From a virus (Duplodnaviria > Heunggongvirae > Uroviricota > Caudoviricetes), in IMG/VR virus record IMGVR_UViG_2703718833_000007, positions 6,191 through 70,190 of that record: 64,000 bases of DNA. One strand, written 5' to 3'. Shown piece by piece: positions 1-53,171 of the stretch. Each line of letters begins with the position of its first letter. Within the stretch, counting starts at the first letter, position 1. Under the pieces are notes generated by a model. That model did not search any database. It was not told the DNA's origin and saw only the letters and a list, made by a program, of their open reading frames with translations. A program made the position numbers and the translations under genes.

Positions 1-236
1 ACGACAATGATGCTATCTCGTTTGCCCTGTTCGCCTTCAAAAATATAGACATTAACAAACCTGTTAGGACTAAGTGATTGTTTATTCTCAACTTTCCCCA
101 TTGGGGGTAGTTGAATTATCCCCCTCTGTGCCATGCGTTCTATAGACTGTTTTACTTTATCGTGACGATTGCCTAGTAGTTCCGCAATTTCAAAACTATT
201 CATCTTAACAGCATCAAAAACCATTAAGTCACTCAT
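1..236 (-). CDS. Rha/antirepressor-family phage regulatory protein, N-terminal 78 codons (gene continues beyond window start)
   Basis: Own minus-strand translation from ATG at 234-236: MSDLMVFDAVKMNSFEIAELLGNRHDKVKQSIERMAQRGIIQLPPMGKVENKQ..., open to position 1; resembles Rha-family N-terminus. Confidence 0.45.
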   Translation of the reverse strand, partial: MSDLMVFDAVKMNSFEIAELLGNRHDKVKQSIERMAQRGIIQLPPMGKVENKQSLSPNRFVNVYIFEGEQGKRDSIIV

Positions 237-367
237 TGTAATTTCTCCGTAAAACGCTCTACAACGCAAAATCCCACCGCGTAACCCATTTGCACAGGTT
301 GCAGTGTCTTATTGCGTCAGAGGCGCTTTCAGGTGGCTAATTTTTGATTTACAGACTGGTAGGTAGG

Positions 368-469
368 TTATGGATTGACTAGAAGGAACAAACCGCCGAA
401 CAAAGCGACGTTAACAGCGATTGCCGCAGCGATGGCAAAAGCCAGGGCGAAAACGTGTTTACCGTCCAT
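368..469 (-). CDS. Small hydrophobic peptide (33 aa), hypothetical
   Basis: Own translation MDGKHVFALAFAIAAAIAVNVALFGGLFLLVNP; GAGGA-like SD upstream; same strand as flanking early genes. Confidence 0.25.
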   Translation of the reverse strand: MDGKHVFALAFAIAAAIAVNVALFGGLFLLVNP

Positions 470-602
470 TTTAAAATCCTCTCTAAAACGCTCTCTAACG
501 AGCTAAACCGCTAAAGGTATGCAAGTGTAGCACCCAATGCTTTTTAGCTCGCTGGTGGGCTTGTTTTGTTGGTGATTTTTGATTTTTGCGTATTGTGGTT
601 GG

Positions 603-1655
603 TCAAATAGCGCCTGCGCGTGTATCGCGTAGCGTTTTTGGTTTAAGCAGGAAATCAAGTGTCGCAGTGAAGCCATCGCCGAAGTAAAAGTCCGAAGCCT
701 TGATCTTGAACGCTTCAAAGTAGGCGATAAAGCCGTTAATGCTTTTGTCTTTCAGGTAGTCAGTGAACGCATAGATCTTACGTTCCAAATCCCGATCCAG
801 TTCAGCAGGTGGCAACAGGCCATCAAACGTGATGTTAAACTCATTAACCACATCGGCAGCGTTTACAGTAGATGACAGCTTGCGCCATTGTTCAGCGTCA
901 GCCAGATACCCATCGAATTTAGTTACCCGGCAAATGTTGATAGGCTTAGGTGTTCCGCCACGGCTACGCCATTGCGTTAAAGCCCACTCAATCACTAATG
1001 TGATCTCATCCTCCGTATACGCTTTGCGTGTTTTTGTTTCTGTCAGTAGTTCGATGAATGGCTTAGCATCACGACATTTGCATCCTGCCTTGTCGTTGTA
1101 GAATGCCAGGCAACGCAATGCAGCATCGCTTATCTGATAGTCACTATCCTGATTGACTTCTTTTCTTTTTATATTTTTCTTTTCTTCTTCTGTTTCTTTT
1201 TCTTCTTCTAATTCTATTTCTAATTCATGACCCTTTCCTGACCCGGTCATGACCATATCATGACCTTTTGTTGTTGGATTGATTAACTTCTCTAATTTTA
1301 ATTGCTCCTTAGCTGTGTTTATGGCTGCCCTGTATGCGCTTTTAGAAGTCATTGATTGGTCCAGCCTTTTCAATAACTTTAAACAAGTTATGTGGCCTTG
1401 AGAGCATTCGAATAAACCAATTTCGATAAAGTATTTCATCATTTCTTCTATGCGTTTTTCAGTCGATCCGACGTTTCGCGCGATGATTCTGGCGTCATGT
1501 CGTAGGTCAAATGTAAGGTTGTGCTGATCTACGTCATAAGTTATCAGTTCTAGGCAATACCAATAAAGCCCGTAGCCTTCCAGGCCATAATCTAATAAAA
1601 CGTTTTGAAGTTTTTCATCGCGGTTCGCATCGCTATCATGCTTAAACCACTTCAT
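603..1655 (-). CDS. Phage replication initiation / replisome organiser protein (DUF4373, Lin1244-like N-terminal domain)
   Basis: Track ORF 350 aa; N-terminus MKWFKHDSDANRDEKLQNVLLDYGLEGYGLYWYCLELI typical of this family; acidic/Lys-rich linker; adjacent to immunity region. Confidence 0.6.
   Translation of the reverse strand: MKWFKHDSDANRDEKLQNVLLDYGLEGYGLYWYCLELITYDVDQHNLTFDLRHDARIIARNVGSTEKRIEEMMKYFIEIGLFECSQGHITCLKLLKRLDQSMTSKSAYRAAINTAKEQLKLEKLINPTTKGHDMVMTGSGKGHELEIELEEEKETEEEKKNIKRKEVNQDSDYQISDAALRCLAFYNDKAGCKCRDAKPFIELLTETKTRKAYTEDEITLVIEWALTQWRSRGGTPKPINICRVTKFDGYLADAEQWRKLSSTVNAADVVNEFNITFDGLLPPAELDRDLERKIYAFTDYLKDKSINGFIAYFEAFKIKASDFYFGDGFTATLDFLLKPKTLRDTRAGAI
1150..1230. other. 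Candidate replication origin (AT-rich pyrimidine tract with TTCTAATTC direct repeats inside replication gene linker)
   Basis: ttcttttctttttatatttttcttttcttcttc...ttctaattctatttctaattc encodes the EEEKETEEEKK linker; analogous to lambda ori inside gene O. Confidence 0.3.
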
Positions 1656-1658
1656 AGA

Positions 1659-1916
1659 TCATTCCTCCGGCAACATCACTACATAGACATCACTGAATGC
1701 ATCAAGACGACAAACAAATCCTTTATCCATTAATGCGGCGAATGCATCATGTACCGTATGAACAGGAAGTTCACACATTGCGGCTACTTCTTTGCGTGAT
1801 GCATCATGTACCCGTCCTTTGTTATCTGCCTTTTCAGCCAGAGCCATTAAGACAAGTTTTTGAATCGGGCTGTTAAGTTTTACGTTCCATGCTTTGCTAA
1901 TAATGTTCATGCTCAT
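1659..1916 (-). CDS. Winged-HTH DNA-binding protein, first gene of leftward early operon (Cro-position regulator or origin-binding helper)
   Basis: Track ORF 85 aa; strong AGGAGA SD; HTH-like KLVLMALAEKADNKGRVHDASRKEVAAMCELPVHTV. Confidence 0.5.
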   Translation of the reverse strand: MSMNIISKAWNVKLNSPIQKLVLMALAEKADNKGRVHDASRKEVAAMCELPVHTVHDAFAALMDKGFVCRLDAFSDVYVVMLPEE

Positions 1917-2222
1917 TGTATTTTCTCCTATGGTTAAAATGAACGCGCTGGCGGGTATCCCATTAGCATTAGATAGCAGTGACTGACCGCTGAACAGATC
2001 CCGCCGTTGCGTGATATTTGTTTTTCGCTTCGCAGCGACACCGGATTTTTAAAGAGCTTTTAAGGTATGTGCCTTTTGTGCTTTCCATTATCTTTTTTCT
2101 TGCATCCTTGCAAGTATGGCCTTACCTTGTCTGCAAGTTTACAGAATGGCGTTAACAGGTCAAGGATTGAAAATTACATTTTGTGACTTGCATCAAATTT
2201 TTTTAGGTTATAGGGTAGCGAC
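1917..2222. promoter_or_regulatory. Divergent immunity control region (PR-like / PRM-like promoters, putative operators)
   Basis: 306-bp gap between divergent wHTH gene and repressor gene; repeated CTTGCA(A/T)G palindromic motifs near 2097-2195; minus-strand TTGCAA-17-TAATGG promoter-like element. Confidence 0.45.
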
Positions 2223-2870
2223 ATGAAAACAAAATGGTATGACTTAGCGAAACAACTCATGCGGGCGCAGGGTATGAGTCAGGATTCATTGGCAGATCTC
2301 ATGGGGATCACAAAAGGCGGCTTGTCACACTGGCTTAACGGTCGCCGCGAGCCGAATCTTGAAGACATTGCGCGGATCATGCGGGCGCTTGGGCGTCGGC
2401 AATTCACTGTTACACATGATGGAATGGTCATTGATGATTCTGTTTCTAACACGTTGCCGGGAGCGCCACCGCGTGATTTAGGCAGTTACCCGGTTGTTGA
2501 CTGGAAGGATGTAGTAAACAATATGGAAGATGCAAGGCGATCAACATTACCACACGTTACGACTAGCGTTATTTGTTCAGATGATAGTTACTGGCTGGTA
2601 GCTAAAGGCGAATCAATGAACGCGCCGCAAGGATTGAGTATACCAGCGGGGACGATGATACTTGTCGATCCGCACGCGCCAGCTATTGATGGCAAACTGG
2701 TTATAGCCCAATTGGAGGAGGGGCAGATACCGACGTTTAAACAGTTGATTATTGATGGAGGCAGAAAACTTTTGCGTTCACTGAATCCGTTGTATCCGCC
2801 AATCCCTATGAATCCAGAATCTAAAATCATAGGCGTGGTAGTGGATGCGAAGATCGTAAACCTGCCATAA
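2223..2870 (+). CDS. CI-like prophage repressor (HTH_XRE + LexA-like S24 peptidase domain)
   Basis: Track ORF 215 aa; N-terminal HTH (SQDSLADLMGITKGGLSHWLNGRREP); C-terminal GESM Ser motif and FKQL Lys motif as in LexA/lambda CI. Confidence 0.8.
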   Translation: MKTKWYDLAKQLMRAQGMSQDSLADLMGITKGGLSHWLNGRREPNLEDIARIMRALGRRQFTVTHDGMVIDDSVSNTLPGAPPRDLGSYPVVDWKDVVNNMEDARRSTLPHVTTSVICSDDSYWLVAKGESMNAPQGLSIPAGTMILVDPHAPAIDGKLVIAQLEEGQIPTFKQLIIDGGRKLLRSLNPLYPPIPMNPESKIIGVVVDAKIVNLP

Positions 2871-2876
2871 ACATTA

Positions 2877-2900
2877 GCCGCCTGGTGGCGGCTTTTCTTT
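2877..2900 (+). terminator. Rho-independent terminator after repressor gene
   Basis: gccgcc-tggt-ggcggc stem-loop followed by ttttcttt. Confidence 0.6.
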
Positions 2901-2993
2901 GCCATAAAAACACCAAAACGTAAACAGAAAACGTTATTTATTGTTTAAATATCAATGACATATAAAATATTTTAAAAAAGTATACAAAATGGA

Positions 2994-3022
2994 TTGACTC
3001 GGTGTTTTACGTGGCGTATATT
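2994..3022 (+). promoter_or_regulatory. Sigma70 promoter (PL analogue) for rightward early operon
   Basis: TTGACT - 17 nt - TATATT preceded by AT-rich UP-like tract. Confidence 0.5.
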
Positions 3023-3063
3023 GCGAGTCAAAGGAGGAAGCAAGGCAGGGAAAGAAGGTTACT

Positions 3064-3101
3064 TGCTCTTTAACAATCTGGTCAGCCGCTGGAAGTGCGG
3101 C
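3064..3101 (+). promoter_or_regulatory. nut-like site: rrn-type boxA (TGCTCTTTAACAA) plus boxB-like hairpin
   Basis: Exact 13-nt boxA consensus, then 8-nt spacer and GCCGC-UGGAAGU-GCGGC hairpin, between promoter and N-like gene. Confidence 0.5.
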
Positions 3102-3156
3102 AATTAACGAAGATGATTTTTATTAAGTATCATCAAGGATATAAGGAGATCAGATC

Positions 3157-3447
3157 ATGACCGTTACAATCATGTATGGCAAATGTGATAGCAAAATAAA
3201 CGCCAGGGAACGCAGAAGAATAAAAAGAGAAAACGAAAGAAAATCATCACCTGCAATTAATAAAACAGACAATGTGGATAAAGCTATTCGCTTTGCAAAC
3301 GAGGAAAGATGCAAACCAAATAGCATTAAAGAACGTCGCAAAGGAGCAGTAAAATGGTATACGGAAAATGAAAGCGGCAACTACTACCACGCAACGCAAC
3401 CACGCCAGTTAGGGGAAAAACCCCTTGATAAAGTCCGTTACCATTAA
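3157..3447 (+). CDS. N-like transcription antiterminator (P22 gp24 / lambda N analogue)
   Basis: Track ORF 96 aa; strong AAGGAG SD; N-terminal MTVTIMYGK and arginine-rich motif ARERRRIKRENERK; immediately downstream of nut-like site. Confidence 0.65.
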   Translation: MTVTIMYGKCDSKINARERRRIKRENERKSSPAINKTDNVDKAIRFANEERCKPNSIKERRKGAVKWYTENESGNYYHATQPRQLGEKPLDKVRYH

Positions 3448-3477
3448 TACAAAATGTAAATAATCGGAGGTGACATT

Positions 3478-3600
3478 ATGGTTATTCAGGCGCTCCAATT
3501 CAAACTGGCGGTAGCGGAAATGCTTCATGATGCCGAAATGTGGAGCGCCGCGAATAAAGCCTTGTATGTAGTGTTAACAGCGAAGGAGATCAAAGAGTGA
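3478..3600 (+). CDS. Hypothetical protein (40 aa)
   Basis: Own translation MVIQALQFKLAVAEMLHDAEMWSAANKALYVVLTAKEIKE; GGAGGTGA SD; stop overlaps erf start. Confidence 0.35.
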   Translation: MVIQALQFKLAVAEMLHDAEMWSAANKALYVVLTAKEIKE

Positions 3601-4250
3601 AAACAGAGTTACACAAAAAACTGTGGACGATTCAGCAAACGCTGAACGCGCCTAAAAATCAGCGTAATAATTTCGGCGGGTATAATTACAGATCAGCGGA
3701 GGATATTTTAGAAGCGGTTAAACCACTGCTTCAAAATATCACGCTGACTGTTAGTGATGAAATTGTCCTGATCGGCAATCGCTATTACGTGAAAGCAACG
3801 GCGACGCTAAGCGACGGTGAAGATGAAATAGCGGTAACGGCTTACGCCAGGGAGGAAGAAAGCAAGAAGGGAATGGACGCAAGCCAGCTAACAGGAGCAA
3901 CATCAAGTTACGCGCGGAAATATGCTTTGAACGGATTGTTCTGCATTGACGACGCCCGCGATCCTGATACTGACGCATACGCGAAGCAGACAGGCCAGCA
4001 GCCACGCCAGCAGAAAAATACGCCAAAACAGCAACCTAATCAGAAACCACAGCAGCAGAAAGCGCCGCCAAATCCTGATGAGGTGTTAGCACGTTTTTGT
4101 GATGCGGCAGCGAAAGCGCAGGACGAAAAAACACTAAGGGAAATATTCGGTAAATGTTGGAAGCTGTTACCTGAAAATTCAGAGCAACGGCAGAAAGCGC
4201 AAGATTGTTACCAGATCCGTAAGGATGAACTGAATGGAACAATTAACTAA
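3597..4250 (+). CDS. erf: Erf-family single-strand annealing recombination protein
   Basis: Track ORF 217 aa (GTG start); LNAPKNQRNNFGGYNYRSAEDILEAVKPLL and GATSSYARKYALNGLF closely match remembered P22 Erf. Confidence 0.85.
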   Translation: MKTELHKKLWTIQQTLNAPKNQRNNFGGYNYRSAEDILEAVKPLLQNITLTVSDEIVLIGNRYYVKATATLSDGEDEIAVTAYAREEESKKGMDASQLTGATSSYARKYALNGLFCIDDARDPDTDAYAKQTGQQPRQQKNTPKQQPNQKPQQQKAPPNPDEVLARFCDAAAKAQDEKTLREIFGKCWKLLPENSEQRQKAQDCYQIRKDELNGTIN

Positions 4251-4830
4251 AAAATGCACAAAATGCGGCAGAATCCTGCCGCTTAACTCTTTCCTGAAGC
4301 ACAAATCATGCAAATACGGCGTAGCTGGTACATGTAAGGATTGCGCAAAGGTATACAGGGAAGCCAATAAAGACAAAATAGCCGAGCAAAATAGAAGATG
4401 GAGGGAAAAACACAAGGAAGAAATTCGAGAAAAGGATAGAAAATACTACGAAGAACACAAAGAAGAATGTAATAAGCGAGCGAAAGAGTATCGTAAAAAT
4501 AACAAAGAAAAAATATTGGAAAAGAAAAATAATTGGGTAAGAAGAAACGAGGAAAGGTTAAAGGAGTATAGGAGACAATACCACGAAGATTATAAAGAAA
4601 GAAATAAGGCGGAACTAAAGGCAAGAACAAAACTAAGCAACGCCATTAGAGATGGTAAAGTATTAAGGCCAAATAAATGTGATAGGTGCGGGAAAAAGTG
4701 CACTCCTGATGGGCATCATTGGAATTATGCATATCCGCTAAATGTTGTTTGGTTATGCCGTTCTTGTCATAAGATAGTGCATTTTAAGTTTGGGTGTATA
4801 CACGAAAACATTAACGGGGAGATCGGTTAA
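4234..4830 (+). CDS. HNH-motif zinc-ribbon protein (putative HNH endonuclease)
   Basis: Track ORF 198 aa; N-terminal CxxC...CxxC, K/E/R-rich middle, C-terminal CDRCGKKCTPDGHHWNYAYPLNVVWLCRSCHKIVH. Confidence 0.5.
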   Translation: MEQLTKKCTKCGRILPLNSFLKHKSCKYGVAGTCKDCAKVYREANKDKIAEQNRRWREKHKEEIREKDRKYYEEHKEECNKRAKEYRKNNKEKILEKKNNWVRRNEERLKEYRRQYHEDYKERNKAELKARTKLSNAIRDGKVLRPNKCDRCGKKCTPDGHHWNYAYPLNVVWLCRSCHKIVHFKFGCIHENINGEIG

Positions 4831-5234
4831 TGAGCTTAAATTTAATCACACTTGGCGGTAATATTGGGAATGATATGAAAGTTCGCTACACGCAAAACGG
4901 GAAGGCGATTGGTAGTTTTTCGTTAGCTGTAACGAATGGATACGGTGATAATAAACGGACAATGTGGATCACTTGTCTGGTATTTGGCGAGCGTGCGGAA
5001 AAATTAGCGCCACATATCCGCAAGGGCGGGAAAATAGTGGTAAGCGGTCGCCTGGACGTTCGGCAATATGACTGGAACGACGGCACGAAGGGGACTGCGG
5101 TAGAAGTGGCGGTTAATGAGTTCGAATTTTGCAGCAGAAACGATCAGCAACCACAGCAACAGCAGCAACAGCAGAATAATGGCGGTGGATATGAAGAGCC
5201 GCCAATGGATTTTGATGATTCAATTCCTTTTTAA
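4830..5234 (+). CDS. ssb: Single-stranded DNA-binding protein
   Basis: Track ORF 134 aa; OB-fold-like N-terminus, Gln-rich linker, acidic C-terminal tail DFDDSIPF. Confidence 0.9.
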   Translation: MSLNLITLGGNIGNDMKVRYTQNGKAIGSFSLAVTNGYGDNKRTMWITCLVFGERAEKLAPHIRKGGKIVVSGRLDVRQYDWNDGTKGTAVEVAVNEFEFCSRNDQQPQQQQQQQNNGGGYEEPPMDFDDSIPF

Positions 5235-5249
5235 ATCAATAGGTTAGCG

Positions 5250-5528
5250 ATGGTCGATTATTTAAAACCGCCACCGCCACCGCGAACAAAAGAGCAAGTA
5301 TTAAAAGAAGCCCGTGATCAAATCGATCATGGGCTTTTTTTATGTGGCACGGCAGCGGAACGGATGGCAAAAAGATTCAGTGACCTGTACGCAAAACAAA
5401 TATGGTTCGACAACTGGCAGGCAAGTTTTTATCCACTGCAAAGAAAACCGGATATGCACTGGCCTGAATATGTCGATCCGCGTATGCGCAAATATCGCGG
5501 GCGTATGGGCCAGGTCATTAACGATTAA
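5250..5528 (+). CDS. Hypothetical protein
   Basis: Track ORF 92 aa, + strand, packed with neighbours; no family recognised. Confidence 0.4.
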   Translation: MVDYLKPPPPPRTKEQVLKEARDQIDHGLFLCGTAAERMAKRFSDLYAKQIWFDNWQASFYPLQRKPDMHWPEYVDPRMRKYRGRMGQVIND

Positions 5529-5767
5529 TGAGGTATCAAATCATGATCGAAGAAAAAGAAGTTGATAAGGAAATGCCTGACACAGCAGATGACTACGTTA
5601 CTTTTGATGGCGGCCTGTATGAGTTCGATACGTCGGCTGGGTGGACGGATAAGTGGCCTCTTCCTACTCGCCAGGAATTAATGGCGCGCAAATCATTCGG
5701 CGAAGATGCGGAACGCCTTGCCAATAACAAATGGCTTGATAAGTTCATTGCGGAGGGTGGCAAATGA
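5528..5767 (+). CDS. Hypothetical protein (start uncertain, possibly 5543)
   Basis: Track ORF 79 aa; stop overlaps next ATG. Confidence 0.35.
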   Translation: MRYQIMIEEKEVDKEMPDTADDYVTFDGGLYEFDTSAGWTDKWPLPTRQELMARKSFGEDAERLANNKWLDKFIAEGGK

Positions 5768-5877
5768 ACCTTGCAAAAATTGCCGCATTGCTTGCGGCTT
5801 TGTCTATCGCTGTGCTGTATCTCAGTGTATCGCTTTATATCACGGTAGCGATCATTAAACTCATTACTAACATGTGA
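5764..5877 (+). CDS. Small hydrophobic peptide (37 aa)
   Basis: Own translation MNLAKIAALLAALSIAVLYLSVSLYITVAIIKLITNM; ATGA overlap with upstream stop. Confidence 0.35.
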   Translation: MNLAKIAALLAALSIAVLYLSVSLYITVAIIKLITNM

Positions 5878-5885
5878 GGTTAATC

Positions 5886-6005
5886 ATGAAAGTCGGTAAG
5901 GATATTGTAACGGTCGCGTTTTGCATTATTTGCTTCCTGTTTGTGGTTGTGTTTTGTGGCGGATTTGCTGCGTTGGTTAGCCTTATTTTTAGGGGGTTGC
6001 TGTAA
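5886..6005 (+). CDS. Small hydrophobic peptide (39 aa)
   Basis: Own translation MKVGKDIVTVAFCIICFLFVVVFCGGFAALVSLIFRGLL; GAGG SD; stop overlaps next ATG. Confidence 0.35.
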   Translation: MKVGKDIVTVAFCIICFLFVVVFCGGFAALVSLIFRGLL

Positions 6006-6277
6006 TGAAAACATGGGATGCAAAGGCTGGCGATCTTGTTGTATTGCCTGAATATCGTGATGACCCTGGCATGGTTGTGCTGAATAAGACGTATAACGAT
6101 TTTGAGCGCCCACTATTGGTTAAATATCTGGACGGAGAAATCATAGAACCGCGCTACTTTGATGAGATTGAACTAAAGGCACGCAATGTCCGCGTTAAGC
6201 CGTTCCGGGCTTATGTTGAAGACCACTGGCGTAAATTGTTCGCCGGACTGAATGGGATGTACGGCGTATGGCTATAA
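6005..6277 (+). CDS. Hypothetical protein
   Basis: Track ORF 90 aa, packed in operon. Confidence 0.4.
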   Translation: MKTWDAKAGDLVVLPEYRDDPGMVVLNKTYNDFERPLLVKYLDGEIIEPRYFDEIELKARNVRVKPFRAYVEDHWRKLFAGLNGMYGVWL

Positions 6278-6468
6278 AATTAGTGAAAGTTAAACACCTG
6301 AAAGGCGGTGAGACGATCCGCGCGTGGTATGGATACGAATTTACTGTATCTGCATTTTATTTCGGTCCTGGTGGTCAGGTGACACTATTTGACGAAGATT
6401 TATGCGAGGTTGGGCAATGGCATCTTGAACAATATGTTGAGGTGTTAAATGAAAATCAAGTTTTATAA
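6268..6468 (+). CDS. Hypothetical protein
   Basis: Track ORF 66 aa, overlaps neighbours by a few nt. Confidence 0.35.
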   Translation: MAIKLVKVKHLKGGETIRAWYGYEFTVSAFYFGPGGQVTLFDEDLCEVGQWHLEQYVEVLNENQVL

Positions 6469-6781
6469 AAGTTATGATTCAGCTACTAACAAGCTATCAC
6501 TATTTATTGAGTTCGAACGCCGGATCGTGGTTGTTCCTTATTCTCGGCGCTTTAATGATGCAGCAGGGCGGCGACAGTTCGCGTTAGATATGTTGTTACG
6601 CGGTTGCGGCCTTATGCGCCCGCTATCTGATTTAAAACGGATGATGCCTGGATCGTTCGGTCAGATTGATGAAATAGAAATAAGTCAGGAAGAACTAAAA
6701 CGGGCGCGTGATTTATTCCTTTCAAGCGAAGGAAACCAGTTTAATCCAGAAACTGAAATGAAATGGCATCACCCACTATAA
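6449..6781 (+). CDS. Hypothetical protein
   Basis: Track ORF 110 aa. Confidence 0.4.
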   Translation: MKIKFYKSYDSATNKLSLFIEFERRIVVVPYSRRFNDAAGRRQFALDMLLRGCGLMRPLSDLKRMMPGSFGQIDEIEISQEELKRARDLFLSSEGNQFNPETEMKWHHPL

Positions 6782-6794
6782 AAGGATAAATATC

Positions 6795-7415
6795 ATGAAC
6801 GACATCAAAACAGCTTATTCACTCGGCAGCGAAGGCATGTTAATCACTCGCTACACTGAAGACGCAAGTTTTCATGAAGTAGAAATTAAAGATTATCACG
6901 AAGTATTGAAAGATATGGAAGCTGGCAAGTATGACGCTGATTTGAATCTGGCGTTACAGATTGTTGATATTGTGATGGATGCAAACATCCGCGATTATGT
7001 GTCTTTAAGTGCGGAAGAAAAAACATCGGTAGCTCGCTATGTCTTCTGTCTTGCTTTCGTAAAACGCATGGAAGAGGAATATGGGCGCGTACCAGTGCCG
7101 GAAGAGATTGACCCGCTTGCGTTCGGAAGCGCTGTTATCTTCCCGCTTGATGAAAACCGTATGGGAAGCATTGCGCTGTATTCTATGCGTGGCATGATGA
7201 AAAAACTCTTTGAAGTTAAGGTGATGCAGAAATGTATTGATGAAGGCCACAAAGAGGAAGAAATAAAATTTTTCATGCCATTGTTTTACGGTGAAATGGT
7301 CGGAAATGATATGCGTGCAAATGATCTAGGTGTACAGGCGGCTATTGCGGTGCTTAATGATGCACGGAAAAATTCACAGCCAATGCCGGAACCGGAAAAA
7401 CGTGTACTGCATTAA
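6795..7415 (+). CDS. Hypothetical protein
   Basis: Track ORF 206 aa; no family recognised. Confidence 0.45.
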   Translation: MNDIKTAYSLGSEGMLITRYTEDASFHEVEIKDYHEVLKDMEAGKYDADLNLALQIVDIVMDANIRDYVSLSAEEKTSVARYVFCLAFVKRMEEEYGRVPVPEEIDPLAFGSAVIFPLDENRMGSIALYSMRGMMKKLFEVKVMQKCIDEGHKEEEIKFFMPLFYGEMVGNDMRANDLGVQAAIAVLNDARKNSQPMPEPEKRVLH

Positions 7416-7512
7416 CAGCGTGATTGCGATCACATGAACATACATTTTGTGTTGTGATTGCATATCCGTTTTGTAAACTTAAATTAAAGGTTTACATCGC
7501 GGAGGAAAGTAA

Positions 7513-7732
7513 GATGGAACGTGAATACATGCTTTATTGCGTTGAGGGTGGCGTAGGTAGCGATGCCTACGTCGCCGGGAAAAGCTATCCAGCAGATGAA
7601 GTGCTTTCTAATATGCACTTCCGTGAAAATGAAAACCAGGTGTCTGTGTGGAAGCGATGCGTTGATGGTATTGAAGTCGTTAGCCTTGAAAGATATTTGG
7701 GTAAATTCGACTACGGATTAATTGAGGCTTAA
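7513..7732 (+). CDS. Hypothetical protein (73 aa from MEREYML)
   Basis: Track ORF 7424-7732 trimmed to internal ATG preceded by GGAGGAAAG SD. Confidence 0.35.
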
Positions 7733-7830
7733 CTATGGACGAATCATTGCTATTCATGTGCATTTGCTGGGGTTTTATTGCCTTATGCCTGTTTATCAGG
7801 TGGTTTATTGAATACCACATGAGGTGATAT

Positions 7831-8025
7831 ATGGAACAGAAAACTGATTATAGAATACCTGACAACCTGAAATTGGTTGGTATTGGTTTTGGTTGTCGTT
7901 TTGTATCTGACGTAAACGGGGCTATTTATTTAGTGCGCATCATTGATGGCGTTCAGCATATAAGAAGGCTAGGACTTTATATCAAAGCATTCAGGAGAGG
8001 TTATTTGAAAACTCATGAAATTTAA
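7831..8025 (+). CDS. Hypothetical protein
   Basis: Track ORF 64 aa. Confidence 0.3.
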   Translation: MEQKTDYRIPDNLKLVGIGFGCRFVSDVNGAIYLVRIIDGVQHIRRLGLYIKAFRRGYLKTHEI

Positions 8026-8218
8026 ACAGTATAAAGAATGGAAGATTCCAGAAGAAGCAACAAAGGCAGCGCCAGGAAGTTTTTCTGGCGTTTACTTTTA
8101 TATGGGTGGTAAATGGTATTTCGGCAGCAGGCCGGATCACTATTATCAAGAAGTATGCAAATCTCACACCTGGGATATTAATGAACGCGTGCAAGGTGGT
8201 GTAATAGACGAGGTTTAA
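8015..8218 (+). CDS. Hypothetical protein
   Basis: Track ORF 67 aa. Confidence 0.3.
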   Translation: MKFKQYKEWKIPEEATKAAPGSFSGVYFYMGGKWYFGSRPDHYYQEVCKSHTWDINERVQGGVIDEV

Positions 8219-8219
8219 A

Positions 8220-8456
8220 ATGGTTAGGGCTTTTTTAAAGTGGTTAGGTGAGTGGCTTTTGGCTACGCTTTTCGTTTTTTTGACGTTCATTGCAGTAATG
8301 ATCATCTTTCTTCTTTCCATGATGTTCCTTACATGGTCAGTACCAGAGTTTATGGATATTGGTAAGGTTCTTGATTTCGCTCGTGCTTTGTTGCTTTGTA
8401 GTGCATTTATTGGTTTTTGCAGGACTGTTTCGCCTGATTGGGATGATGAATGGTGA
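8220..8456 (+). CDS. Hypothetical membrane protein (2 predicted TM helices)
   Basis: Track ORF 78 aa, hydrophobic segments LLATLFVFLTFIAVMIIFLLSMMFL and ALLLCSAFIGF. Confidence 0.35.
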   Translation: MVRAFLKWLGEWLLATLFVFLTFIAVMIIFLLSMMFLTWSVPEFMDIGKVLDFARALLLCSAFIGFCRTVSPDWDDEW

Positions 8457-8460
8457 TCCT

Positions 8461-8694
8461 ATGGCCTTGTTCAATATGTCAGAGCCGCAATTTAACGCCG
8501 TAAAGACTGCCGCCCGCGCAGCGCTTTCGGCCTGCAAAGCGGAAGTAGAGAAAAACGGCTACAGCGATAAAGCTACGCGGCTGATATTAGAAAAGCATTA
8601 TCGCAAGGTCGCCCCACTAATCAGCATTGAGCGCTTTGTGTGGTTGGTGGGGTATTTAAACAACCGTTGGGGAACGGAACAGGATTATTTCTAA
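8461..8694 (+). CDS. Hypothetical protein
   Basis: Track ORF 8359-8694 trimmed to ATG after upstream stop. Confidence 0.3.
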   Translation: MALFNMSEPQFNAVKTAARAALSACKAEVEKNGYSDKATRLILEKHYRKVAPLISIERFVWLVGYLNNRWGTEQDYF

Positions 8695-8703
8695 GGGGGC
8701 GTA

Positions 8704-9243
8704 ATGAAAAATGATTTTGGAGGCAGCCACACTCCTAAGGAAATTAAAGATCTATGGCAGACGCCTAAACCAGTTTTCAGAGGAATGGATCGGGAATTTG
8801 AATTCGTCGCGGATGTGGCGGCAAACAAGGCAAACGCGCTAGTTCCGCGATATATAACCGAAGAAATGGACACGTTGCATTATCCGTGGGGAGCGGTGGC
8901 AATGCCTGGCGAGTATGTCTGGCTTAATCCGCCATATTCTAAACCGGGGCCATTCGTTGAGAAGGCGGCATTAGAACATCAACGAAATCACATTGGCTGT
9001 GTAATGCTGTTGCCCGCTGACATTTCTGTTAGCTGGTTCATGAACGGCGTGGAGACGGCAAACGAATGCCGATTAATCACGCGCGGGCGTCTGGCGTTTA
9101 TCAATGCTGAGACAGGGAAACCAGCAAGCGGAAACAACAAAGGCAGCTTGTTTTTGATCTGGCATCCACGGTGCAGACATGAATGTATTTTTACGCAGAT
9201 AACACGTAAAGAGCTATATGCAAGAGGTGCAGATAATGACTAG
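8704..9243 (+). CDS. Phage DNA N6-adenine methyltransferase (Dam-like, orphan)
   Basis: Track ORF 179 aa with catalytic NPPY motif (WLNPPYSKPGPF); no adjacent restriction gene. Confidence 0.8.
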   Translation: MKNDFGGSHTPKEIKDLWQTPKPVFRGMDREFEFVADVAANKANALVPRYITEEMDTLHYPWGAVAMPGEYVWLNPPYSKPGPFVEKAALEHQRNHIGCVMLLPADISVSWFMNGVETANECRLITRGRLAFINAETGKPASGNNKGSLFLIWHPRCRHECIFTQITRKELYARGADND

Positions 9244-48464: not shown

Positions 48465-48941
48465 CAAAAGCAATTTTTCCGGCTGTCTGTATACAAAAAC
48501 GCCGCAAAGTTTGAGCGAAGTCAATAAACTCTCTACCCATTCAGGGCAATATCTCTCTTGCAGGTGAATGCAACGTCAAGCGATGGGCGTTGCGCTCCAT
48601 ATTGTCTTACTTCCTTTTTTGAATTACTGCATAGCACAATTGATTCGTACGACGCCGACTTTGATGAGTCGGCTTTTTTTTGCCTGTTATTTATCAGCGT
48701 CTACCCTTTAAGAGTCCACCCAATGACCAGAGGGAAATATGACGACACTTATTTATTTGCAAATTCCTGTCCCTGAACCGATTCCTGGCGATCCTGTTCC
48801 AGTGCCCGATCCGATCCCTCGCCCGCAACCCATGCCTGACCCACCACCCGATGAAGAACCGATTAAATTGTCGCATCGTGAGCGTAGATCTGCGAGGATA
48901 CGCGCCTGCTAACTTTGCGTCGATGACCACGAGAATAGATT

Positions 48942-52961: not shown

Positions 52962-53171
52962 TTAATTTGAATACAATGCAATTCTCGAGGACTGAAGTTT
53001 CTCGCAATTAAAATTTATCAGTTTTACTTTCTGCTCTCTGGAAACGCCTGCTTCTTTTTTACCTGAGAGCATTTTTTCGCATTCTGATTTCGTTAGTTTA
53101 GATTTTGAATATCTTGTCCAGTTAGTAGGAGTGCCACCTTCCTTTTCAATAGTGGCGGTAATTTTATACAT
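52962..53171 (-). CDS. rcbA: Rac prophage protein RcbA (YdaC)
   Basis: Track ORF 52962-53243 trimmed to MYKITATIEKEGG. Confidence 0.75.
   Translation of the reverse strand: MYKITATIEKEGGTPTNWTRYSKSKLTKSECEKMLSGKKEAGVSREQKVKLINFNCEKLQSSRIALYSN

Follow-up and report, generated by a model that had tools for sequence, protein, structure and literature searches.

The DNA analyzed was a 64,000-nucleotide (nt) stretch of a tailed-phage record (IMG/VR IMGVR_UViG_2703718833_000007, positions 6,191 to 70,190), hereafter the window, in whose coordinates all positions are given. Near its start a gene of 1053 nt (603–1655, minus strand) encodes a replication initiator of 350 amino acids (aa), consisting of an N-terminal Lin1244_N/DUF4373 domain (N-domain), a linker and a C-terminal domain. 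The linker-coding part holds an AT-rich tract (1157–1224) and, directly adjoining it, an array of short phased boxes (1225–1265). Tract and boxes together (1157–1265) are presented here as the probable replication origin of the prophage. The original prediction had placed a lambda-like origin at 1150–1230, in a pyrimidine-rich AT tract with direct repeats TTCTAATTC that encodes the acidic linker of a DUF4373-type initiator. The boxes were absent from that prediction.

The array consists of four 8-base-pair (bp) boxes at an exact spacing of 11 bp (gene nt 391–431), which on the coding strand run GGTCATGA tat GGTCATGA ccg GGTCAGGA aag GGTCATGA. All were placed on the minus strand. Box 1 (GGTCATGA; 1258–1265, gene nt 391–398) is read as G-H-D, box 2 (GGTCATGA; 1247–1254, gene nt 402–409) in a different frame as V-M-T, box 3 (1236–1243), the degenerate copy GGTCAGGA, as S-G, and box 4 (GGTCATGA; 1225–1232, gene nt 424–431) as G-H-E. 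The boxes fall in different frames because 11 is not a multiple of 3, and the encoded peptide (GHDMVMTGSGKGHE) is therefore non-repetitive. The array was recovered in three ways: by repeat search, by Tandem Repeats Finder (1224–1269, period 11, 4.2 copies) and by a scan for 4-copy phased 7-mers, which returned this locus alone in the 64 kb and none in 30 composition-preserving shuffles. The sequence GGTCATGA occurs 7 times in the window (1.7 expected), with 4 of the 7 occurrences inside the 41 bp of the array.

The core of the box is the palindrome TCATGA. Boxes 1, 2 and 4 were invariant in 29 distinct close copies from Escherichia coli, among which substitutions were confined to the 3-nt spacers and box 3. 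Box 3 is the sole degenerate copy because a canonical TCATGA would read TCA-TGA, a stop, in that frame; relatives carry the nearest sense versions there (TCATGT, TCATGG, TCATGC or TCAGAA). Such a pattern marks a DNA motif that is preserved in spite of the demands of coding. Internal translation starts at the box ATGs were considered and rejected, since in the E. coli clade the ATG of box 4 does not share the gene's frame and meets a stop codon two codons on.

The tract (minus strand, gene nt 432–499) has a coding strand rich in purines and specifies the acidic linker, as had been predicted (linker stretch ELEIELEEEKETEEEKKNIKRKE, including GHELEIELEEEKETEEEKKNIKRKE). The predicted composition was likewise recovered: 1150–1230 is 22% GC and 81% pyrimidine, and the 68-bp core at 1157–1224 is 21% GC, 88% pyrimidine and 69% T (plus strand). 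The profile bin 1161–1240 had a GC content of 0.25, a GC skew of -0.70 and an AT skew of -0.70. Strand asymmetry in the 64 kb peaks in the 64-nt segment that starts at 1158 (9% purine on the plus strand), and the tract ranks as the 6th least stable 60-bp segment in the 64 kb, ~3.3 standard deviations above the mean.

The repeats named in the original prediction are present in exactly two copies in the window, which start 12 bp apart at 1206 and 1218. Both (1206–1214 and 1218–1226) belong to a run of GAAWTA hexamers (1202–1226, minus strand), and the repeat, which reads (GAATTA)n on the coding strand, is a hexamer prone to slippage that numbers roughly 1–4 copies among the 29 close relatives. 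As its copy number differs between strains, TTCTAATTC was rejected as an iteron. The run is the E. coli-phage counterpart of GATTAGATTAGA, a motif ~90% conserved in the Vibrio clade. The tract is only the presumed unwinding half of the origin, and the likely initiator-binding sites are the adjacent GGTCATGA boxes. A palindrome on the far side of the tract, GATAGTCACTATC (1136–1148), was considered as a lambda-like flanking inverted repeat and rejected, since even MIN12, the closest allele, does not keep it.

A second purine-rich AT tract with a period-17 tandem repeat, in the stretch 4380–4560 (tract at ~4487–4560; ~80–83% purine, GC ~21%), was found in an unrelated open reading frame (ORF) at 4234–4830 (plus strand) encoding a K/E-rich, cysteine-rich protein of 198 aa. 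It has no adjacent phased boxes and served as a negative control. Because a similar tract occurs in this unrelated ORF, such a tract is by itself weak evidence.

Layout and selection across the family

Initiator genes were gathered from 9 E. coli prophages, from 6 isolated and annotated phages (Vibrio, Pantoea, Pseudoalteromonas) and from the contigs of 80 of 336 confirmed IMG/VR relatives. The 42 non-redundant genes, from phages of E. coli, Vibrio, Pantoea and Pseudoalteromonas, share one layout, in which an N-domain ending ...KRLDxSMTSN is followed ~50 nt on by rrTCATGA boxes (three to seven per relative) and then by a purine-rich AT tract. Consecutive CATG motifs were spaced by 11 (47 times), 21 (34 times) or 10 (4 times) nt, and CATG density was 17/kb in the box segment vs 4.6/kb in the rest of the genes. 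The 60 nt past the last box averaged 30% GC and 71% purine (gene as a whole, 40% GC). The C-terminal domains are unrelated between lineages; the conserved unit is N-domain plus boxes plus tract.

Synonymous sites were analyzed in 21 divergent genes (gapless alignment, 70–87% N-domain nt identity) as the pairwise identity of synonymous codons. This identity was 0.52 in codons 1–105 (N-domain) and 0.44 in codons 106–116 (before the boxes), and rose to 0.90 in codons 117–131 (boxes) and 0.97 in codons 129–140 (start of the tract). The best 24-codon window began at codon 117 (0.92), vs 0.59 for the best elsewhere. Several codons were fixed (His118 CAT, Ser125 TCA and Arg134 AGA, each 21/21; Leu135 TTA, 19/19), and in the same genes Arg97 and Leu98 had synonymous identities of 0.16 and 0.18. 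At aa 121 (V/I, GTC/ATC) and aa 128 (P/V/I, CCC/GTC/ATC) the residue varies and the C before ATG is kept. Box 4 is read as G-H-E in the E. coli clade vs V-M-Q in the Vibrio clade, with an identical DNA motif. The 90% consensus of the conserved island is TCATGAnnnnnTCATGAnnnAnTCAGnnnnnnnCATGCAAGATAAGAnTAGATTAGA. A selected, cis-acting DNA element is almost certainly present at 1157–1265.

The wider family comprised 692 clusters at 50% identity (E <= 1e-30). The peptide HD..M, which the boxes encode, was present in 95 of the 146 top cluster representatives examined; the 150 representatives listed from the family search all belong to the near clade. Among the representatives P0241–P0386, those lacking HD..M still carry 5-residue charged repeats after the N-domain (KNRID-KNRID, EENRT-EENRT, EEKRI-EEKR), which at the DNA level amount to a 15-nt purine-rich periodicity and could be either a DNA element or a feature of the peptide.

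The initiator, its sister phages and their replication genes

The initiator matched Pfam PF14297 (Lin1244_N, DUF4373) at aa 3–87 (E 5.9e-11; 43.4 bits vs a curated cut-off of 25). It also matched PHROG 20981 (E 6.8e-142), phrog_428 over its C-terminal half and phrog_345 ('replication initiation O-like') over aa 1–349 (E 2.8e-18); the PHROG families matched are annotated 'replication initiation O-like' or 'replication initiation protein'. Close homologues are named 'Lin1244/Lin1753 domain-containing protein' in RefSeq. A PDB sequence search with the initiator returned nothing significant and an NCBIfam search returned no family. Over the whole gene, nt identity to phages mEp515 and MagusPhagus was 89–90%.

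The N-domain (aa 1 to ~100; 1356–1655, minus strand) is highly conserved in Vibrio, Pantoea and E. coli phages and is predicted to be a winged-helix DNA-binding domain. An AlphaFold2 model of aa 1–135, built from a 40-sequence alignment (mean predicted local distance difference test score 74.8), showed a long helix (14–40), a helix-turn-helix (HTH; 55–62 and 66–78) and a beta-hairpin (83–90), with the box-encoded residues 124–135 disordered. The best Foldseek matches in the PDB were the winged-HTH domains of NtcA/CRP/MarR (probability 0.99, TM-score ~0.41, E ~0.08). The C-terminal domain (603–1124, minus strand; from gene nt 532 on) is a separate module, presumed to recruit the helicase or the replisome, with 91–93% nt identity to those of phages mEp021, mEp044 and mEp010.

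Related phages carry other repeats at the same place. In a divergent sub-lineage typified by E. coli LSU61 (with MFDS1019527 and the IMG/VR relatives L050 and L051), five CCATG(G/A/T) boxes in 11-bp phase encode an unrelated peptide, and the differences in the N-domain cluster in the predicted wing (ITCLKL to VRCLSL). In mEp021, mEp044, mEp554 and mEp010 an O-like HTH_36 N-domain (PF13730, vs PF14297 here) is joined to the same C-terminal domain. These mEp021-type genes carry, at the same gene position, four 22–23-bp direct repeats (GGTAGTGGCAsArAGCAACC), followed by an AT-rich segment and a palindrome; in the mEp021 record the repeats lie at ~3627–3714, inside the O-like gene. The mEp021-type sisters therefore share with this prophage the genome position, the small HTH gene upstream, the C-terminal domain (~91–93% nt) and the presence of repeats and an AT-rich segment in the gene, and differ in N-domain family and repeat sequence. 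A 15-bp palindrome, ATACACTTCGTGTAT, past the AT-rich segment is found in the mEp021-type phages, mEp515, the LSU61 type and most E. coli alleles; the allele in the window lacks it and has a longer purine tract in its place. Box type, tract allele and C-terminal domain assort independently (window and MIN12 vs mEp515; L051 vs LSU61; mEp021), a pattern that is as expected if the N-domain recognizes the repeats.

The gene that immediately follows the initiator in relatives codes for a DnaB-type helicase, a lambda-P homologue or an IstB/DnaC-like ATPase, and the DUF4373 protein therefore holds the 'O' position. In Pantoea phage PdC23, for example, a lambda-P homologue (Pfam Phage_lambda_P, E 5.7e-57) follows the DUF4373 gene. 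The type of C-terminal domain varies with the partner gene. In mEp515, a member of the prophage's own group, a DnaB-type helicase is encoded ~3 kb downstream in the same operon, which past the initiator contains an Ant-like gene, an exonuclease, an HNH gene and the helicase, and which ends at the integrase.

The operon that reads through the candidate origin begins with an 85-aa HTH gene (1659–1916, minus strand; phrog_4617, E 5.7e-23), which resembles the N-termini of O-like initiators and keeps its position in mEp515, mEp021 and MagusPhagus. Divergent from the operon lies a cI-type repressor gene (2223–2870, plus strand; HTH_3 and Peptidase_S24), named 'cI repressor' in mEp515. Both mEp515 and MagusPhagus are mEp021-like 'mEpimmI' temperate coliphages (PMC11893012). 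Over the immunity/replication region, which was the part compared, the prophage had the same gene order (HTH gene, initiator, divergent cI) at 89–90% identity to these two phages, and it is accordingly assigned to the mEpimmI (mEp021-like) group. It is interrupted by the start of the window, beyond which lies the helicase-to-integrase arm (~8.6 kb in mEp515). Cumulative GC skew, which had been proposed as a check on the origin, reached its minimum at 1839, in the divergent cI/replication promoter region; this is uninformative on the origin because the minimum merely marks the switch in gene orientation and the left arm of the prophage falls outside the window.

Several other features were recorded in and beyond this region. 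The 85-aa HTH gene holds (at 1695–1812) 4 of the 5 window copies of ATGCATCA, at 1697, 1742, 1797 (minus strand) and 1799. Within this cluster the 14 nt ATGCATCATGTACC recur exactly, at 1742 and 1799, and TGATGCATCA (1797–1806) is a palindrome of 10 bp. The cluster may be a peptide repeat and not a DNA site, since its 45- and 57-nt spacings are in frame and encode VHDA/LDAF. The divergent intergenic region contains an imperfect 25-nt direct repeat (2074–2098/2179–2203) and an overlapping palindrome, CATCCTTGCAAGTATG (2103–2118), which are candidate operators. Of all 60-bp segments in the 64 kb, the one at 2935–2995 (GC 13%) is the least stable; it is intergenic, just past the cI terminator (2876–2893), and the best sigma-70-like promoter match in a scan of 400–3100 lies next to it (2994–3022). 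Repeat searches found none at 2880–3160 and, across 1–9000, no iteron-like arrays besides 1225–1265. Rfam matches at gathering score to the small RNAs FnrS and RalA (the rac antitoxin) were obtained at 48560–48677 and 52987–53165 (both plus strand), from which the right part of the window is taken to be E. coli chromosome or a rac remnant.

The candidate origin and competing explanations

The segment 1157–1265 is probably the replication origin of this mEpimmI prophage, embedded in the linker-coding part of its initiator gene. The lambda-like origin of the original prediction is thereby supported on comparative grounds, namely synonymous constraint, exchange of boxes with N-domains, helicase or loader genes next door and an order and polarity identical to those annotated for lambda ori. 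From the anatomy of the locus, the selection acting on its DNA, its association with the N-domain throughout the family and the replication genes around it, we infer the following course of initiation. Transcription of the operon diverging from cI would yield the 350-aa initiator, whose winged-helix N-domain would bind the four GGTCATGA boxes; these would present themselves on one face of the DNA, because they are spaced one helical turn apart. The resulting nucleoprotein complex would place the adjoining 68-bp tract under stress and melt it, and the C-terminal domain would then bring in the phage DnaB-type helicase, expected to be encoded further down the operon, outside the window.

Several points weigh against this assignment. 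A search of the paper library on mEp021, DUF4373 and Lin1244 yielded no account of an origin in this protein family or phage group, and the sole mEpimmI paper does not mention one (PMC11893012). Among close E. coli relatives no part of the gene varies more in sequence than the tract; that clade keeps only its composition, and a charged linker peptide would account for this as well. The N-domain resembles winged-HTH proteins only weakly in structure, at the E and TM values given above. A search of PLSDB found no plasmid using this N-domain as its Rep, and hence no independent support from a minimal replicon. The Mann-Whitney test of the synonymous constraint (p = 4e-11) is only approximate, related sequences having been counted as independent. 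The sites are 8 bp at 11-bp spacing, vs 18–19 bp at ~20–24 bp in lambda. Finally, the left 8–9 kb of the prophage, beyond the window, could hold another origin.

The most serious rival takes the boxes as genuine binding sites, of the initiator or of some other protein of phage or host, that act in autoregulation or as a transcriptional roadblock within the replication operon, with the origin elsewhere (for instance at 2935–2995 or outside the window). The array does lie inside the initiator's own operon, where binding could throttle read-through, and the low stability of 2935–2995 and the missing left arm leave room for an origin at another place. An operator, however, needs no adjoining tract conserved in composition and, in the Vibrio clade, in sequence; the searches of 2880–3160 and 1–9000 returned no second array; and the mEp021-type sisters place classical iterons and an AT-rich region at exactly this spot. 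The layout of the locus also matches lambda ori. This explanation was judged improbable. An element acting at the RNA level is less probable still. It could take the form of an mRNA hairpin of boxes 1 and 2 (9 bp; fold z = -2.2) or, on the opposite strand, of GGTCATGACC-ATA-TCATGACC followed by TTTTGTTGTT as an antisense intrinsic terminator, and a terminator scan did list 1245–1265 (plus strand) with a T-run (to ~1275). A weak promoter-like site (1077–1104, plus strand; TTTGCA-16-TAGAAT, 9/12 matches) lies ~140 nt upstream, and the pair would give an antisense RNA of ~170 nt, pyrimidine-rich, across the tract. The hairpin is an automatic consequence of palindromic boxes, though, promoter-like matches occur at chance level (7 vs 6.1 expected), and the Vibrio clade does not conserve the T-run (Lys116 AAA or AAG, in a different context). 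Boxes 3 and 4, the arrays of 4–7 boxes, the helical phasing and the conserved purine tract would all be left unexplained.

A reading in which tract and boxes have no function as DNA, and only encode, through AT-biased codons, a linker peptide that is conserved, charged and flexible (HD-VM-S-MQDKIRL / ELEEEKE), is very unlikely. The prevalence of HD..M among the cluster representatives would agree with it, as would the commonness of charged E/K linkers, the similar tract in the unrelated ORF at ~4487–4560 and the variability of the tract among close relatives. Against it, synonymous sites are frozen (0.90–0.97 vs 0.52), the C before ATG persists although aa 121 and 128 change, the period of 11 is not a multiple of 3, the frame of box 4 differs between the E. 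coli and Vibrio clades, box 3 is occupied by the sense sequences closest to TCA-TGA, and the peptide is predicted to be disordered. Least likely of all is that the conserved island serves as a recombination 'linker' where two modules meet, its similarity owed to frequent exchange among phages and not to selection for a biochemical function. The site is indeed a mosaic junction, as seen in the independent assortment of box type, tract allele and C-terminal domain and in the unrelated C-terminal domains across the family. Yet the island is far more conserved than the 5' N-domain DNA to which it is always linked, and recombination would homogenize that flank too; 11-bp phasing and avoidance of a stop codon are not expected of a homology patch. 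A recombination junction is also compatible with origin function at 1157–1265, because lambdoid origins are recombination junctions as well.

The origin proposed here gives the mEpimmI coliphages a precise candidate. The mEpimmI group is reported to be as prevalent as lambdoid phages in human gut samples. By the same layout, an origin is also predicted in a wide range of marine phages of Vibrio and Pseudoalteromonas in which the initiator carries the annotation 'DUF4373, unknown function', and Pfam Lin1244_N gains a putative function in these phages, as an origin-binding domain. The locus is further an example of overlapping constraints, a cis-acting DNA array that is read in all three frames and in which one box has had to degenerate so that no stop arises, which is of relevance to annotators and to studies of codon usage and selection. 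That an origin may lie inside the initiator gene is already known, and a lambda-like solution was to be expected; what is new is that the initiator family is a different and uncharacterized one. For a specialist, the lambda-like mechanism is useful rather than surprising.

A broader reading, entertained only tentatively, is that a double-coded origin is common to a very large family of phage initiators, in which the same initiator reads the near-universal TCATGA boxes as duplex and the purine strand, with its sequence-conserved motif (CATGCAAGATAAGATTAGATTAGA, ~5-nt periodic), as single-stranded DNA, an arrangement analogous to DnaA boxes and DnaA-trios. Were this true, origins and N-domains would be interchangeable between Vibrio, Pantoea and Escherichia phages, because the site is conserved across host genera, and the peptide HD-VM-SC would be a by-product of the DNA code, usable to annotate origins in thousands of phage genomes.

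Comparison with known origins

Lambdoid origins combine iterons (4–6 in lambdoid and Stx phages) with an AT-rich region in the middle of O, and the O protein also binds the AT-rich single strand (PMC7466680). In the lambda record (NC_001416), four 18-bp iterons lie at O gene nt 349–433 with starts 20–24 bp apart; next come ACAAAAGAAAAAAGAAAAGATTATT, which is 22% GC with a coding strand rich in A, and an inverted repeat. The candidate origin shares with lambda ori its position in the middle of the initiator gene, between a (here predicted) DNA-binding N-domain and a (here presumed) partner-contacting C-terminal domain. Both have four repeated sites with internal dyad symmetry followed, along the direction of transcription, by an AT-rich ~40–70 bp whose coding strand is purine- or A-rich, both lie in an early operon diverging from cI, and in both, related phages swap the N-domain together with its sites. 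Four features of a lambda-type origin were found here: position between domains, at least three repeated candidate sites, an AT-rich segment downstream and (in relatives) an associated helicase or loader gene.

The differences are genuine. The initiator belongs to Pfam Lin1244_N and has no Pfam match to lambda O, to which it is linked only by the remote PHROG 'O-like' similarity; the boxes are not phage-specific, being conserved among phages whose hosts belong to different genera; and the partner is apparently a phage-encoded DnaB-type helicase, not P with host DnaB. Neither a lambda-O-homologous N-domain nor 18–19-bp iterons ~20–24 bp apart, the two features of the lambda O/ori family proper, was found.

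Outside the lambdoid phages, there is a likeness to iteron plasmids, whose Rep proteins (RK2 TrfA, F RepE) also bind one strand of the AT-rich unwinding element. The candidate origin shares with these plasmid origins a (here predicted) winged-helix initiator, direct repeats beside an AT-rich element and a possible sequence-specific role of the tract (GATTAGATTAGA), but their iterons are 17–22 bp long and usually lie outside the rep gene. Precedents for very short sites (7–8 bp) are provided by the octamer type-I iterons of the ori/crr of satellite phage P4, and PhoB/OmpR-type winged-helix proteins line up on direct repeats at 10–11-bp phase. The proteins in both cases are unrelated to the initiator, the P4 origin is not in a linker-coding region, and the PhoB sites are promoters. 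With 8-bp boxes recurring once per helical turn and no Pfam lambda-O domain, the candidate origin is therefore classed as one that would work like lambda ori and not as a member of the lambda O/ori family.

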